Positions 37,646-40,751 of a DNA stretch of 64,000 nt are shown here, piece after piece; within the stretch, counting starts at the first letter, position 1; every line of letters begins with the position of its first letter. The position numbers were made by a program, and so were the translations under genes. The notes beneath the pieces were generated by a model. The model did not search any database, was not told the origin of the DNA, and saw only the letters and a list, made by a program, of their open reading frames with translations. The stretch comes from Terriglobia bacterium (lineage in GTDB: Bacteria; Acidobacteriota; Terriglobia; Bryobacterales; UBA6623): NCBI GenBank assembly GCA_963824095.1, contig CAWGNS010000008.1:755627-819626 (forward strand). The letters are read 5' to 3'.

Positions 37646-39031
37646 ATGAAACGGCATGACATGGTGATCATCGGCGCCGGCCCGGGCGGGTATGTGGCTG
37701 CTATCCGGGCGGCGCAGTTGGGTCTCGACGTCGCCTGCATCGAGAAAGAGAAAGCGCTGGGCGGCACCTGCCTGCGCATCGGCTGCATCCCCAGCAAGGC
37801 GATGCTCGAATCAAGCGAGCTGTACCACGAAGCGTCCAGCGGGTTTTCCGAACATGGGCTGGTGCTCAACCAGGTCGGGCTCGACCTGAAAAAGATGCTC
37901 GACCGCAAGGAACGCGTCGTCAAGCAGCTCACCGGCGGCGTCGGCCAGTTGTTCCGCAAGAACAAGGTGACCCGCTATGAGGGCCAAGCCCGCTTGGCGG
38001 GCGGCGGCCGCGTAGTGGTCACCGGCCCAGAAGGCGAAACCGAACTCGAAGCCGCGCACATCGTCGTCGCCACCGGCAGCAAGAGCGCGCCCTTGCGCGG
38101 CGTGGAGTTCCATGGCGACCGCATCGGGACGAGCACCGAGGCGCTGAGCTACGACGAAGTTCCGCGGCGGCTGGTGGTAATCGGCGCGGGCTATATCGGC
38201 CTCGAGATGGGTTCGGTATGGAAGCGGCTCGGCTCGCAGGTCACGATGCTCGAATACCTCGACCGCATCCTGCCGGGGATGGACTCGGAGCTGGCCGGCG
38301 AGGCGCGCAAGATTTTCGAAAAGCAGGGCCTGGAGTTCCGCCTGGGGACCAAGGTCACCGCCGCGCACGTCAAGGGAGATGTGTGTATCGTCGAACGCGA
38401 GGGGGCCGAGCCGATCGAGTGCGACCGGGTGCTGGTTGCTGTAGGACGCCAGCCCAATACCGAGGGTCTGGATCTCGCAGCGGCCGGGGTCGAGCTCGAC
38501 GACAAGGGCCGGATCCAGGTCGATGACCGCTTCGCCACCTCGGCCGAGGGCATCTACGCGATCGGCGACGTCATTCGCGGTCCGATGCTGGCCCACAAGG
38601 CCGAGGAGGAAGGTATCGCCTGCGTGGAAGGCATTGTGACCGGCTACGGGCACGTCAACTACGACGTGATTCCGGCCGTGGTGTACACGCACCCCGAAAT
38701 CGGCTCGGTCGGCAAGACCGAAGACGAGCTGAAAGCGGCAGGCGTCGAGTACCGCAAGGGCGAATTCCCCTTCCGCGCCAACGCGCGCGCCAAAACGCTC
38801 GCCCAGGTGGAAGGTAAGGTGAAAATCCTCGCCAACGCCAAGACCGACCGCGTGCTGGGAGTCCATATTTTCGGCCCGCGGGCGGGCGATCTGATCGCCG
38901 AGGCTGCGCTCGCCATGGAGTTTGGGGCCAGCAGCGAAGACATCGCCCGAACCAGCCACGCGCACCCCACCCTGGCCGAAGCCGTCAAGGAAGCCGCCCT
39001 GGCCGTGGACGGCCGAACGATCAATTTCTAG
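37646..39031 (+). CDS. lpdA: Dihydrolipoyl dehydrogenase
   Basis: GAGPGGY, GGTCLRIGCIPSK, GAGYIGLE, HPTLAE. Confidence 0.97.
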   Translation: MKRHDMVIIGAGPGGYVAAIRAAQLGLDVACIEKEKALGGTCLRIGCIPSKAMLESSELYHEASSGFSEHGLVLNQVGLDLKKMLDRKERVVKQLTGGVGQLFRKNKVTRYEGQARLAGGGRVVVTGPEGETELEAAHIVVATGSKSAPLRGVEFHGDRIGTSTEALSYDEVPRRLVVIGAGYIGLEMGSVWKRLGSQVTMLEYLDRILPGMDSELAGEARKIFEKQGLEFRLGTKVTAAHVKGDVCIVEREGAEPIECDRVLVAVGRQPNTEGLDLAAAGVELDDKGRIQVDDRFATSAEGIYAIGDVIRGPMLAHKAEEEGIACVEGIVTGYGHVNYDVIPAVVYTHPEIGSVGKTEDELKAAGVEYRKGEFPFRANARAKTLAQVEGKVKILANAKTDRVLGVHIFGPRAGDLIAEAALAMEFGASSEDIARTSHAHPTLAEAVKEAALAVDGRTINF

Positions 39032-39262
39032 GCCAACCACCCCTGGGCGTCCAACCCGCGAAGCGAACGAACAGGGCCCCACCCGGGGAGGGTGCGGGCC
39101 GAGGCGGCACGGTGGCGGGGAGAGACGGGTGCCGGGGGAGAAGAGGCGGCCGGGGTGAGCCCGTGGCTGTAAGGCGGCCTTTGACCGTCTGTCGCGATCC
39201 ATACCGTTTTGAACCGGATCTGTTCCACTTTGAAATGGTTCTTTGCCGGTTTGGCGTGGTTT

Positions 39263-39316
39263 CGTGCCGCTTCGGCCCGCAGGCTTCCGCCAGCGGCTCC
39301 GTTTCCTGGGGCCTAG
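39263..39316 (+). repeat. REP-like family C copy
   Basis: CGTGCCGCTTCGGCCCGCAGGCTTCCGCCAGCGGCTCCGTTTC, nearly identical to 47370-47423. Confidence 0.8.
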
Positions 39317-39404
39317 ATTTCGTGCCTCTGGGGGGCTTTGGTGGGGCGCCTTGGCAGACCCTGCCACTACCGGGCCGCCAATTCGCTACAATGATCGGAA
39401 ACCT

Positions 39405-39539
39405 ATGGCAGACGAAAGCAAGCTCTATCAGGCCGAATACTTGGGCAGCGGGACGTTCCACGTCACCAAGCCGAAACGTAAACCCAAGAAGCAGCGCCAG
39501 ACGCGCGTCAAGAACCGCCAGCGCGGCGCCCGCAAGTAG
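39405..39539 (+). CDS. 44-aa Lys/Arg-rich microprotein
   Basis: MADESKLYQAEYLGSGTFHVTKPKRKPKKQRQTRVKNRQRGARK; TACAAT -10 at 39387-39392; mostly G/C-ending codons. Confidence 0.6.
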   Translation: MADESKLYQAEYLGSGTFHVTKPKRKPKKQRQTRVKNRQRGARK

Positions 39540-39959
39540 GCCCGACGCAGCGGAGCCAACCGCGGGCCCCACTCACCTCGGGCGGTCGCCCATCCCGGCT
39601 GGAAAGTCCATGTCCTGCGCGTGCTGGATACGCCCGGGGCAAATCTCCCCCAAGCGGCTCGCGTAGATTTCTGGGCGTTTGGCCCGAGTCCGTGCAGGCC
39701 TAAGCGTCTACGCGGGTATGTCCATGTGGGTCTAACGGGACAGCGCGACCCAGCGTGGGCCGGGCGGCCTGCTGGCATGTGGGCGGCGATCCCGCACCTG
39801 CGCCGACCACCCAGCTCGGGTATATCGCATCGAGCATGCTACACCCATCGGAAAACGGTCGCGGTCAATCAGAGACACCGGACCCCTCGTGTTGAATATC
39901 TCAGCTTGAACGAATTTCCCGGCCGATTTGCGGATTTCTCTTCCCTGGGGAGGCTTTTG

Positions 39960-40128
39960 TTCCGGAGACTGCTGGCTGAGATAACGCCCCACGGAGGGGG
40001 GAGGCGGTTCGTCAGGAAGTTGGGGGGGAAGAACCCCGCAGGGCGTCTCTCAGGTCAGCACTTCCGAAATGACGCCCTGCAGGGTGAGGCGTTTTGGGTC
40101 GTCGGGGGGGAATCCCTGCAGGGCGCAT
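39960..40128 (-). ncRNA. Two tandem homologous hairpins with C-rich loops (candidate sRNA or 3' UTR module)
   Basis: Stems at 40073-40125 and 39984-40046 start CGCCCTGC on the minus strand. Both loops carry TTCCCCCCC and CGCCTC. Stem mismatches are G-U only on the minus strand. Confidence 0.6.
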
Positions 40129-40141
40129 ATCGCAGAAGGAG

Positions 40142-40297
40142 CTATCTCCTCTTGGTCGGAGATCTATGGTCTGGCCGTTGGTCCTGACCCACCGCTCGGA
40201 CGATGAGTGCGAGAACCCCCCACTCCAGAGCCAGGGCGAGGGAGAAGGATGGAACGAGCGCCCCAAGCACCAGAGCAAGTGACCAGATGGGATCCAT
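40142..40297 (-). CDS. 51-aa small membrane protein, leaderless (absent from ORF track)
   Basis: MDPIWSLALVLGALVPSFSLALALEWGVLALIVRAVGQDQRPDHRSPTKRR; ATG about 2 nt after the predicted sigma54 +1. Confidence 0.65.
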   Translation of the reverse strand: MDPIWSLALVLGALVPSFSLALALEWGVLALIVRAVGQDQRPDHRSPTKRR

Positions 40298-40309
40298 GCC
40301 GCGCTACGA

Positions 40310-40325
40310 AGCAAGCTGGATGCCA
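40310..40325 (-). promoter_or_regulatory. Sigma54 (-24/-12) promoter
   Basis: Minus strand TGGCATCCAGCTTGCT versus consensus TGGCACG-N4-TTGCW, with exact spacing. Confidence 0.7.
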
Positions 40326-40420
40326 AACGAAAACAGGCCTATTTCCGTAATATGCCCGCCCTTAGGTCGCCTTGGCCGCAGGCCGCAAATGGTACTTCTT
40401 ACCACCTGTACGCGCCTGAT

Positions 40421-40437
40421 TGTGTAAAAATTTCACA
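40421..40437. promoter_or_regulatory. Possible enhancer-binding protein site (TGT-N11-ACA)
   Basis: TGTGTAAAAATTTCACA, an AT-rich dyad about 125-140 bp upstream of the sigma54 start. Confidence 0.45.
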
Positions 40438-40466
40438 CTAGGGTACGTAGAACGCCCAGGGTCCGT

Positions 40467-40751
40467 ATGACACCGAAATCGCCGGCTGCTCGCCGATACG
40501 TCGTCCATGGCCGCGTGCAAGGGGTCGGCTTTCGCTATTTCGTGGAGCGGGAGGCCCGGCGGCTGGGGCTGGACGGCTATGTCAAGAACCGCGCCGACGG
40601 CACCGTCGAGGTCTACGCCAGCGGCTCCGAGAAGCAGGTGAGCGAGCTCAAGAGCCTGTTATGGACCGGGCCCGGCCTGGCCCGCGTCGACAACGTCGAG
40701 GAACGTGAAAGCGAAGCCGGGCAGCGCAGCGGCTTCAGGGTGGAATTCTAA
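40467..40751 (+). CDS. acyP: Acylphosphatase
   Basis: GRVQGVGFR, GYVKN..DGTVE, GP..ARV. Confidence 0.95.
   Translation: MTPKSPAARRYVVHGRVQGVGFRYFVEREARRLGLDGYVKNRADGTVEVYASGSEKQVSELKSLLWTGPGLARVDNVEERESEAGQRSGFRVEF

Follow-up and report, generated by a model that had tools for sequence, protein, structure and literature searches.

RNAIII of Staphylococcus aureus (Firmicutes) is an agr-controlled RNA of 514 nt which consists of 14 hairpins, hairpin 14 being its terminator, and which carries as well the delta-hemolysin open reading frame (ORF). Its loops 7, 13, and 14 are C-rich and pair with G-rich Shine-Dalgarno (SD) regions, as described in PMC2837412. CcsR or ‘cuckoo’ RNAs are presented in PMC8034643 as tandem hairpins which lie behind a small-protein gene, are governed by an alternative sigma factor, and possess anti-SD-like C/U-rich loops. 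The 6C small RNA (sRNA) displays loops with at least six C's that bind messenger RNA (mRNA) directly, i.e., without chaperones (PMC6486639), and NrsZ of Pseudomonas aeruginosa is an RpoN/NtrC-dependent RNA made up of similar, repeated stem-loop modules (PMC4253122). Considered here are two minus-strand hairpins with C-rich loops, found between positions 39975 and 40125 of a 64,000-nt stretch of Terriglobia bacterium DNA (assembly GCA_963824095.1, contig CAWGNS010000008.1, positions 755,627 to 819,626), which as a whole is referred to as the window. These hairpins form the 3' end of a ~325-nt unit consisting of a sigma-54-type promoter, a small ORF, a stop-codon hairpin, and then the two hairpins themselves. 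Judging from sequence comparison, the best explanation is that a conserved RNA element at the 3' terminus has been duplicated in tandem within one genus.

The comparison employs a relatives set of 77 genomes of the same family (f1; Bryobacterales, Acidobacteriota), in 12 genera labelled g1 to g12. The window's genus is g1, with G000 the window's own genome (7.67 Mb) and G001 another genome of that genus. An alignment of hairpins contains 29 copies from eight genera, that is, the window's two, the two of G001, and 25 others, from which the covariance model R1 was built.

As with CcsR1-4/cuckoo (alpha-r14) of the Alphaproteobacteria, hairpins here lie behind a small-protein gene and share an anti-SD-like loop motif. 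The motif itself differs, being GCCUCC or C-runs in the Bryobacterales element versus CCUCCUCCC in each CcsR loop (PMC8034643). That is, CCUCCUCCC is absent from the window's loops, which read ...ACGCCUCA and ...CCGCCUCCCCCCUCC, and from the family consensus, ACGCCUCC. Most genera here have one hairpin per gene, whereas CcsR has two per unit and four units. The protein is a hydrophobic membrane protein rather than an Arg-rich DUF1127 protein (CIN1 subgroup), the predicted sigma factor is sigma-54 rather than RpoHI/HII, and the phylum is Acidobacteriota. Processing from the 3' untranslated region into separate sRNAs, as dependent on RNase E, is a CcsR feature; the RNA-library data in this case, all of them assembled contigs, give a joined ORF-to-hairpin fragment and no processed species. 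The first-pass annotation of the window had termed the hairpins ‘cuckoo-like’, a description that is apt with regard to architecture and to an anti-SD-like CCUCC core, but not as membership, for motif, Rfam model, DUF1127 neighbour, and taxon all fail.

RNAIII is alike in that a small membrane-active peptide and 3' hairpins share one RNA, but there is neither sequence nor structural homology, and pairing in the present case is a proposal. With 6C, from Actinobacteria, the likeness is of a high-GC organism with C-run hairpin loops. That RNA, however, is a stand-alone sRNA rather than the end of a coding transcript, and in the present element only g1, g8, and a single g6 locus possess long C-runs. 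Membership in 6C was rejected, with no 6C match even at E up to 10; C7 runs are present, but the host is a Bryobacterales acidobacterium. NrsZ is similar in its sigma-54 dependence (predicted here) and its repeated modules, but it is non-coding and has three modules with loop motif ACAGGCAG, versus a coding unit that has two modules in two genomes only. Rfam searches returned no match at the gathering score for the 64-kb window or for 10 homologous loci, and nothing relevant at E up to 10 for 39000-40500. The literature search found no paper on regulatory RNA in Bryobacterales or on sigma-54-dependent sRNA in Acidobacteria, nor, among the titles listed on leaderless mRNA plus sigma54, any describing such a case. 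The element, as the first-pass annotation had supposed, thus appears to be a previously undescribed RNA family. In type it is a small-protein transcript whose 3' end carries an anti-SD or C-rich loop, in this case combined with unusual sigma-54 and leaderless features.

The hairpins and what separates them are as follows.

40073 to 40125, minus strand: hairpin 1, a perfect 12-bp stem with a 29-nt loop containing a C7 run and CGCCUCA
40047 to 40072, minus strand: inter-hairpin spacer UCAUUUCGGAAGUGCUGACCUGAGAG, in which several substitutions and indels set the window apart from G001 and from relatives' RNA contigs, the stems being invariant
39975 to 40053, minus strand: hairpin 2, a 13-pair core stem plus extension, with a 37-nt loop containing a C7 run and CCGCCUCCCCCCUCC

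Read along the minus strand this is ...GAUAUG-CGCCCUGCAGGG-[AUUCCCCCCCGACGACCCAAAACGCCUCA]-CCCUGCAGGGCG-UCAUUUCGGAAGUGCUGACCUGAGAG-ACGCCCUGCGGGG-[UUCUUCCCCCCCAACUUCCUGACGAACCGCCUCCCCC]-CUCCGUGGGGCGU-UAUCUCAG. The 5' arm of hairpin 1, CGCCCTGCAGGG (40125-40114), and its 3' arm, CCCTGCAGGGCG (40084-40073), enclose the loop ATTCCCCCCCGACGACCCAAAACGCCTCA (40113-40085), and the 12-bp perfect inverted repeat was recovered also by a repeat search of the window. The core of hairpin 2 has ACGCCCTGCGGGG (40046-40034) as its 5' arm and CTCCGTGGGGCGT (39996-39984) as its 3' arm, with the loop at 40033-39997. Three of these 13 pairs are G-U, and so would be A-C mismatches if read on the plus strand. RNAfold lengthens the stem by CUGAGA/UCUCAG, i.e., 40053-40048 with 39980-39975. 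Common to both loops is TTCCCCCCC, and likewise CGCCTC, as ACGCCTCA and CCGCCTCC.

The 201-nt segment 39950-40150 folds on the minus strand at -82 kcal/mol (z = -4.81), with none of 200 shuffles equalling it, versus z = -1.68 and 13 of 200 shuffles for the plus strand. Within the 7.67-Mb genome R1 scores hairpin 1 at 51.6 bits and hairpin 2 at 48.4 bits, the next best being 18 bits (E 0.23). Only the two tandem copies are present, that is, and a check for a dispersed repeat found no further copy of the element in that genome, leaving a single locus. In elements from public records R1 similarly prefers the ORF strand (68-82 bits versus 22-31 bits in reverse). The two hairpins proposed by the first-pass annotation are therefore real, and are kept in G001. 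Its observations of loop motifs recurring in both loops, of mismatches that are G-U solely on the minus strand, and of that strand as the functional one all hold, and its stem end points for hairpin 2, about 39970/40060, come close to those of RNAfold.

Both hairpin stems are near-copies of a palindromic core, CCCUGCAGGG, as a consequence of which a different pairing is available, in which the 3' arm of hairpin 1 joins the 5' arm of hairpin 2 over 15 bp around a 23-nt loop (40033-40047 with 40071-40085). This alternative excludes the two-hairpin fold and is equally possible in G001.

What carries the element beyond the window is, to begin with, its retention in G001. Identity there is 86% over 326 nt of the block, with both stems invariant, and the conservation begins at the promoter motif and stops just past hairpin 2. 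A 1-nt indel in G001 shifts the C-terminal tail of the ORF and the next 60 nt are almost identical nonetheless, which implies that this part is conserved as nucleic acid rather than as protein. Among loci of other genera, 25 of 28 have as the first strong hairpin following the stop codon (5-50 nt away) one of the same design. Its outer stem is rich in G+C (GCCCUGCAGGG... or covarying equivalents) and is followed by an internal loop on the 5' side, an inner mini-hairpin (CCCG-ACGGACCA-CGGG or CCGA-(C)GGCCCA-UCGG), an internal loop on the 3' side, AACGCCUCC(C...), the closing arm, and, in most genera, a U-tract, with the interior of the hairpin spanning 24-37 nt. The other aligned genera have a single homologous terminal hairpin per gene. 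The loop of hairpin 1, CCCGACGACCCAAAACGCCUCA, can be aligned to CCCGACGGACCACGGGAACGCCUCC, the family consensus; g1 has lost the inner hairpin's 3' half to decay, which frees the C-run.

Over the 29 copies the 14-bp outer stem has 92.6% of its cells paired and double-sided changes in seven of its 14 pairs, e.g., U-A to C-G, A-U to G-C, and G-C to C-G. The covariation score is 0.321 versus 0.187 +/- 0.014 upon shuffling (none of 500 shuffles reaching it) and at most 0.148 in slid registers, and RNAalifold recovers the same outer stem. The inner helix is less regular, 71.6% paired, since registers differ between genera. A 19-nt loop consensus is common to g2, g7, and g12. GCCTCC is found in 21 of 29 copies and GCCTCA in two more, and it is this motif along with the inner mini-hairpin, rather than the TTCCCCCCC that the first-pass annotation had stressed, which is conserved. 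C-runs of at least six, by contrast, are seen only in g1 plus three rows of the alignment (L013 and L022, both of g8, and L031).

R1 matches 35 of the 77 family genomes, with one strong locus per genome; G042 gave no R1 match under stricter filters, yet the hairpin is visible in its locus, L029. Same-strand tandem matches occur only in G000 and G001, two of those 35, so that the ‘tandem module’ of the earlier description is correct for g1 but neither general nor, being the 3' end of the ~325-nt unit, stand-alone. Its placement of the hairpins at the 3' end of a small-protein gene (ORF 40297-40142) is well borne out: in 29 of 33 ORF-bearing genomes an R1 match lies downstream of the ORF on the same strand, within approximately 200 nt. 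Elsewhere in the order R1 gave weak matches (25.6-34.4 bits) in five of 71 genomes of family f2 and two of seven of family f3. In the rest of the phylum a protein-profile search returned two matches in 400 genomes. One of these, L143 (G027, f2, ~1455-1620), has a small-protein homologue, TGGCAT-N5-TTGCT, and a convergent basic-protein gene along with a 24-nt leader containing AGGAG, but lacks a conserved hairpin at the 3' end; in the other, no promoter is clear. As L143 has a leader and lacks the hairpin, leaderless layout and hairpin may both be innovations of f1.

The 19-nt loop pattern occurs in 83 public records. Of the 80 that were fetched, 13 are true elements by R1, 12 of them in records of Bryobacterales bacteria and one in a record of an Acidobacteria bacterium, in keeping with the acidobacterial assignment made at the outset. 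The remaining 67 are not elements by R1 and were treated as chance matches. The element, to go by its sequence distribution, is a lineage-specific invention of one Bryobacterales family, whose members are Acidobacteria of soil and sediment.

In most genera the hairpin looks like the intrinsic terminator of its gene, because a U-tract follows. Using a threshold of at least five T's in the 8 nt after the stem, a G+C-rich stem plus immediate U-rich tail at the gene end is seen in 16 of 29 copies, as with ordinary intrinsic terminators. What differs is the interior, 24-37 nt of conserved sequence with an inner hairpin. The 11 copies of g1 and g2 are conserved without a good U-tract, those of the window having only three T's in 8 nt after each stem and no clean U-tract. 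The first-pass observation that the window hairpins lack a U-tract is correct, but the argument drawn from it, that they are not plain terminators, does not stand once the homologous hairpins are considered. A consensus terminator scan did not call the window hairpins; that scan admits loops of 3-8 only.

The remainder of the unit, together with its RNA-library cover, is the following.

40310 to 40325, minus strand: sigma-54-type promoter TGGCATCCAGCTTGCT, i.e., TGGCAT-N5-TTGCT (-24 GG, -12 GC), a pattern match
40142 to 40297, minus strand: small ORF of 51 codons plus stop, encoding a hydrophobic membrane protein (MDPIWSLALVLGALVPSFSLALALEWGVLALIVRAVGQ...), apparently leaderless, as based on conservation and coding pattern
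40144 to 40163, minus strand: small hairpin over the stop codon, AUCUCC-GACCAAGA-GGAGAU, a predicted fold
40126 to 40141, minus strand: CU-rich linker CUCCUUCUGCGAUAUG, read from sequence
40011 to 40288, no strand assigned: RNA-library contig cover, nine contig pieces of 62-291 nt from four runs of four studies, word depth 7-293

The sigma-54 consensus is TGGCAY-N5-TTGCW. At 40325-40310 the putative promoter has -24 GG and -12 GC in the fixed spacing of TGGCAC-N5-TTGCW, and it is the sole match in the window to the pattern TGGCAYNNNNNTTGCW, with 0.07 expected by chance. This motif ends 13 nt before the ATG of the ORF. With the usual sigma-54 geometry, which puts the start ~12 nt past the C of the -12 GC, the transcript would start close to 40299, i.e., 2 nt 5' of the ATG, giving rise to a presumably leaderless message. 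Of 30 homologous loci, 28 (all but L018 and L039) have TGG-N9-TGC at 27-34 nt 5' of the inferred start codon, and an rpoN gene is present in the genome itself.

By six-frame peptide search, homologues of the small ORF occur in 33 of the 77 family genomes and in nine of 12 genera, with none in the 31 genomes of g10, the largest genus. The protein has a conserved core, SFxLALxxEWGxLxxIxRA. Differences between loci at codon positions 1, 2, and 3 number 597, 312, and 747, and synonymous codon changes 459 in frame versus 229 and 111 in shifted frames (pairs not being independent), a pattern on the basis of which the ORF is taken to be coding. It has no Pfam match (E up to 1) and no NCBIfam match, matches ‘hypothetical protein’ clusters only in a protein atlas (scores 0.85-0.88), and yielded no relative in a public-record search employing the single sequence. 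Small hairpins comparable to that over the stop codon, located at the stop or directly past it, are GUCUCC..GGAGAC (g8 and L031) and GACUC..GAGUC (g7 and g12), and in G001 the region is nucleotide-identical despite the shifted reading frame. Related to the linker is GGCUCCUCCUGCGAC(U), read in loci of g8 and g9 and in L031, with variants in other g6 loci.

The hairpins sit in a 1.4-kb gap between lpdA (37646-39031, plus strand) and an acylphosphatase gene (40467-40751, plus strand; Pfam E 3.8e-27), with apt, ispE, and prs coming after the latter. Synteny was held in all 10 loci looked at, with acylphosphatase and apt divergently upstream in nine (not discernible in L018). Located at 39405-39539 on the plus strand is a gene for a 44-aa, very basic, Lys/Arg-rich protein, MADESKLYQAEYLGSGTFHVTKPKRKPKKQRQTRVKNRQRGARK, which neither Pfam nor NCBIfam assigns to a family. 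In seven of 10 family loci looked at, this gene stands convergently next to the unit, and it is found also in f2 (3/3); in a phylum sample it is limited to this order, i.e., four of 401 genomes, the window's own included. The ~435 nt between that gene and hairpin 2 (39540-39975) lack conservation in G001, correspond to a far shorter stretch in other genera, and include a plus-strand terminator-like site at 39937-39953 with the tail CTTTTGTTCC. Some 70-105 nt 5' of the promoter, in most genera, is an inverted repeat, (T)CTTAC(AC)...GTAAGA(A), with a spacer of 5-22 nt. Its window version (~40391-40430, minus strand) includes the palindrome GGTAAGAAGTACC, kept in G001, and it occupies the same relative place in L012-L040. 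From its sequence and position it could be where the activator binds (an enhancer) or could belong to the promoter region of the divergently oriented acylphosphatase gene. In G054, ~700 nt from the small-ORF unit, a group II intron is found (L034:228-836, minus strand; RF02005 177 bits, RF00029 49 bits).

Parts of 39400-40500 (7-22% of sampled words) occur in 24 public sequencing runs of 16 studies. Four runs, each from a different study, were aligned to the locus, all as assembled contigs, which can show neither true RNA ends nor RNA levels; the other 20 are not counted as evidence of expression or of habitat. Contig cover comprises the ORF, hairpin 1, and the 5' half of hairpin 2. The four runs give none for 39400-40010 or 40289-40500, missing cover which carries no weight. 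Several contig pieces are identical to the window. Others, from relatives, differ at 8-13 places, located in the ORF, in the spacer (40060-40071), in the hairpin 1 loop (40110 and 40113), and at 40126-40128, with none in the stems. In contig X9, Illumina adapters immediately flank a 236-nt insert (40020-40255) on either side. A single cDNA molecule, that is, joined ORF, hairpin 1, and hairpin 2 loop, which argues for co-transcription. Contigs stop at 40011, 40020, and 40022, within the hairpin 2 loop, two of them with adapters directly attached. These stops may represent an RNA 3' end or cleavage near AA/CUUCC, or equally library fragmentation.

What might such an RNA do? The proposal to which we give a probability of roughly 0.5 is that of a dual-function RNA, one which encodes the small protein and whose terminator domain would pair with SD regions of other mRNAs. 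Transcription from a sigma-54 promoter, and therefore with an enhancer-binding activator and its signal, would fire ~2 nt before the start codon. The resulting leaderless RNA would encode the ~50-aa membrane protein and end in a long G+C-rich hairpin, acting as terminator in most genera. The enlarged interior of that hairpin, i.e., inner mini-hairpin and 3' internal loop, would display GCCUCC, sharing the CCUCC core of the 16S tail, and the 3' domain, whether in the full-length RNA or once processed, would reduce the translation of other mRNAs by pairing with their G-rich SD regions. In g1 the domain would have been doubled, gaining C7 runs and losing the U-tract. What the data show directly are the hairpins with their covariation and loop conservation, the restriction to a single locus, the link to ORF and promoter motif, and the occurrence in RNA libraries; we infer the start site, the termination and, most of all, any pairing in trans with its targets.

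Three features suggest more than a terminator. The 24-37-nt interior keeps its sequence while the stem covaries, the element persists in genera in which the U-tract has decayed, and the conserved, single-stranded GCCUCC has the CCUCC core in common with the 16S rRNA tail of the organism itself, quoted as ...GGAUCACCUCCUUUCU (3' end, L145: ...GGCTGGATCACCTCCTTTCT). The dual-function proposal is favoured as well by precedent, since documented RNAs pair C-rich or anti-SD hairpin loops with SD regions. As to the two functions, the ORF has a coding-type substitution pattern and one cDNA insert spans ORF to hairpin 2, with translation and pairing putative. Stated in full, and more tentatively, this would be a sigma-54-controlled, leaderless, dual-function RNA, a single short and abundant transcript made upon an enhancer-binding-protein signal, which supplies a 50-aa membrane protein along with a terminator-embedded anti-SD mimic that damps translation initiation of a set of mRNAs, with g1 having doubled and C-enriched the domain. 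Elsewhere in G000 (L144:1498-1516; contig C8, ~2010211-2010229) is a stretch of 18-19 nt identical to the 16S 3' tail (GCTGGATCACCTCCTTTC) in a non-rRNA context, with no Rfam match in the 3-kb locus and with flanks unlike those of the true 16S end, L145. This, going by its identity, may be another anti-SD mimic.

A number of points weigh against an anti-SD role. GCCUCC is missing from six of 29 copies (two of g9, four of g6) in which the hairpin is kept, and hence in those copies is dispensable to the hairpin's role, and hairpin 1 of the window itself carries CCUCA rather than CCUCC. Three loci (L023/G011, L030/G020, and L039/G014), left out of the hairpin alignment, possess the ORF but no comparable hairpin. 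Most copies resemble ordinary intrinsic terminators, if with an unusually large interior. A crude exact-complement scan over 11,054 SD-supported candidate starts found no excess over composition-matched shuffles (at k = 8, 176 complements versus 204 +/- 88 for hairpin 1 and 418 versus 345 +/- 140 for hairpin 2), and CCUCC is so generic that SD complementarity discriminates little. Adapter orientation gives a mixed strand as well: by the dUTP convention X7 and X9 would derive from a minus-strand RNA but X3 would not, and this was not counted. An excess of complements to the CU-rich linker (148 versus 46 +/- 27, k = 8) was set aside as circular, because candidate starts had been chosen for GGAG, GAGG, or AGGA.

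The serious rival, though one that we would sooner doubt than hold, is a role solely in cis. The hairpin would terminate the small-protein mRNA and protect its 3' end, without any regulation in trans, its interior would be kept by folding, by stability, or by recent descent, and the second g1 copy would offset the decayed U-tract. Such a role is what one would expect of a hairpin that bears a U-rich tail in 16 copies, that in most loci is the sole strong hairpin between the ORF and its convergent neighbour, and that six copies keep without GCCUCC. Confinement to one family means, too, that some of the identity may be inherited rather than selected. Terminators, however, need no interior of 24-37 nt, and 11 copies have stayed conserved without a good U-tract. 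A loop motif that is fixed while the stem covaries freely across genera is, moreover, the pattern of a sequence-specific function. Another possibility is a protein-binding platform, with conserved loop and C-runs recognised by Rho, by a ribonuclease, or by the neighbouring small basic protein. C-rich, G-poor, single-stranded loops do stand beside U-less hairpins in g1, where rut-like loops might substitute, via Rho, for the lost U-tract, and a 44-aa Lys/Arg-rich gene is convergent in most of the loci looked at and present in a second family of the order. In the CcsR system, furthermore, the neighbouring small Arg-rich protein binds the RNA (PMC8034643). The basic protein of the present locus, however, occurs also in f2, where the hairpin is absent, and in most genera the U-tract is normal and C-runs are lacking, rendering this explanation unlikely.

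Less likely still would be the mRNA of a toxin-type hydrophobic peptide, as in type I toxin-antitoxin systems, with 3' structures controlling its own translation or stability by a hok-like fold-back. A ~50-aa hydrophobic product of no known family and a highly structured mRNA (fold z = -2.38) are as one would anticipate for it, but the predicted fold shows no 5'-3' pairing, and no antisense promoter or RNA was found, with zero sigma-70-like sites on either strand of 39500-40500. The locus, too, is single, conserved, and syntenic, lying between acylphosphatase/apt and the basic-protein gene, and is neither mobile nor multicopy. We therefore view a toxin as quite improbable. As to a feature acting at the level of DNA, i.e., paired operator sites or a REP-like repeat, the CCCTGCAGGG arms are self-complementary and occur twice, 39 nt apart. 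Arms elsewhere, though, are non-palindromic and yet mutually complementary, as with GCCCTGCCGGG / CCCGGCGGGGT of g9, which contradicts the palindrome reading; G-U pairs arise only on the ORF strand, and the genome has no further copies. On sequence grounds this possibility is already disfavoured, and its likelihood would seem to be very slight indeed.

The implications of the dual-function proposal, with its anti-SD domain, are these. If GCCUCC acts in trans, then the reliance on C-rich or anti-SD seeds, familiar in Alphaproteobacteria, Firmicutes, and Actinobacteria, would reach a further phylum, and a terminator hairpin would have been enlarged into a regulatory domain and subsequently duplicated. 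Acidobacteriota would, in that case, have their first described riboregulator. That a sigma-54 promoter should give an apparently leaderless start, with its motif spacing kept in nearly all loci, is unusual and directly testable, and because the type of promoter is defined, the regulator along with its signal can be sought. For this family of Bryobacterales, the locus offers a conserved, single-copy RNA element with covariation, a linked membrane protein of no known family, and presence in RNA libraries.

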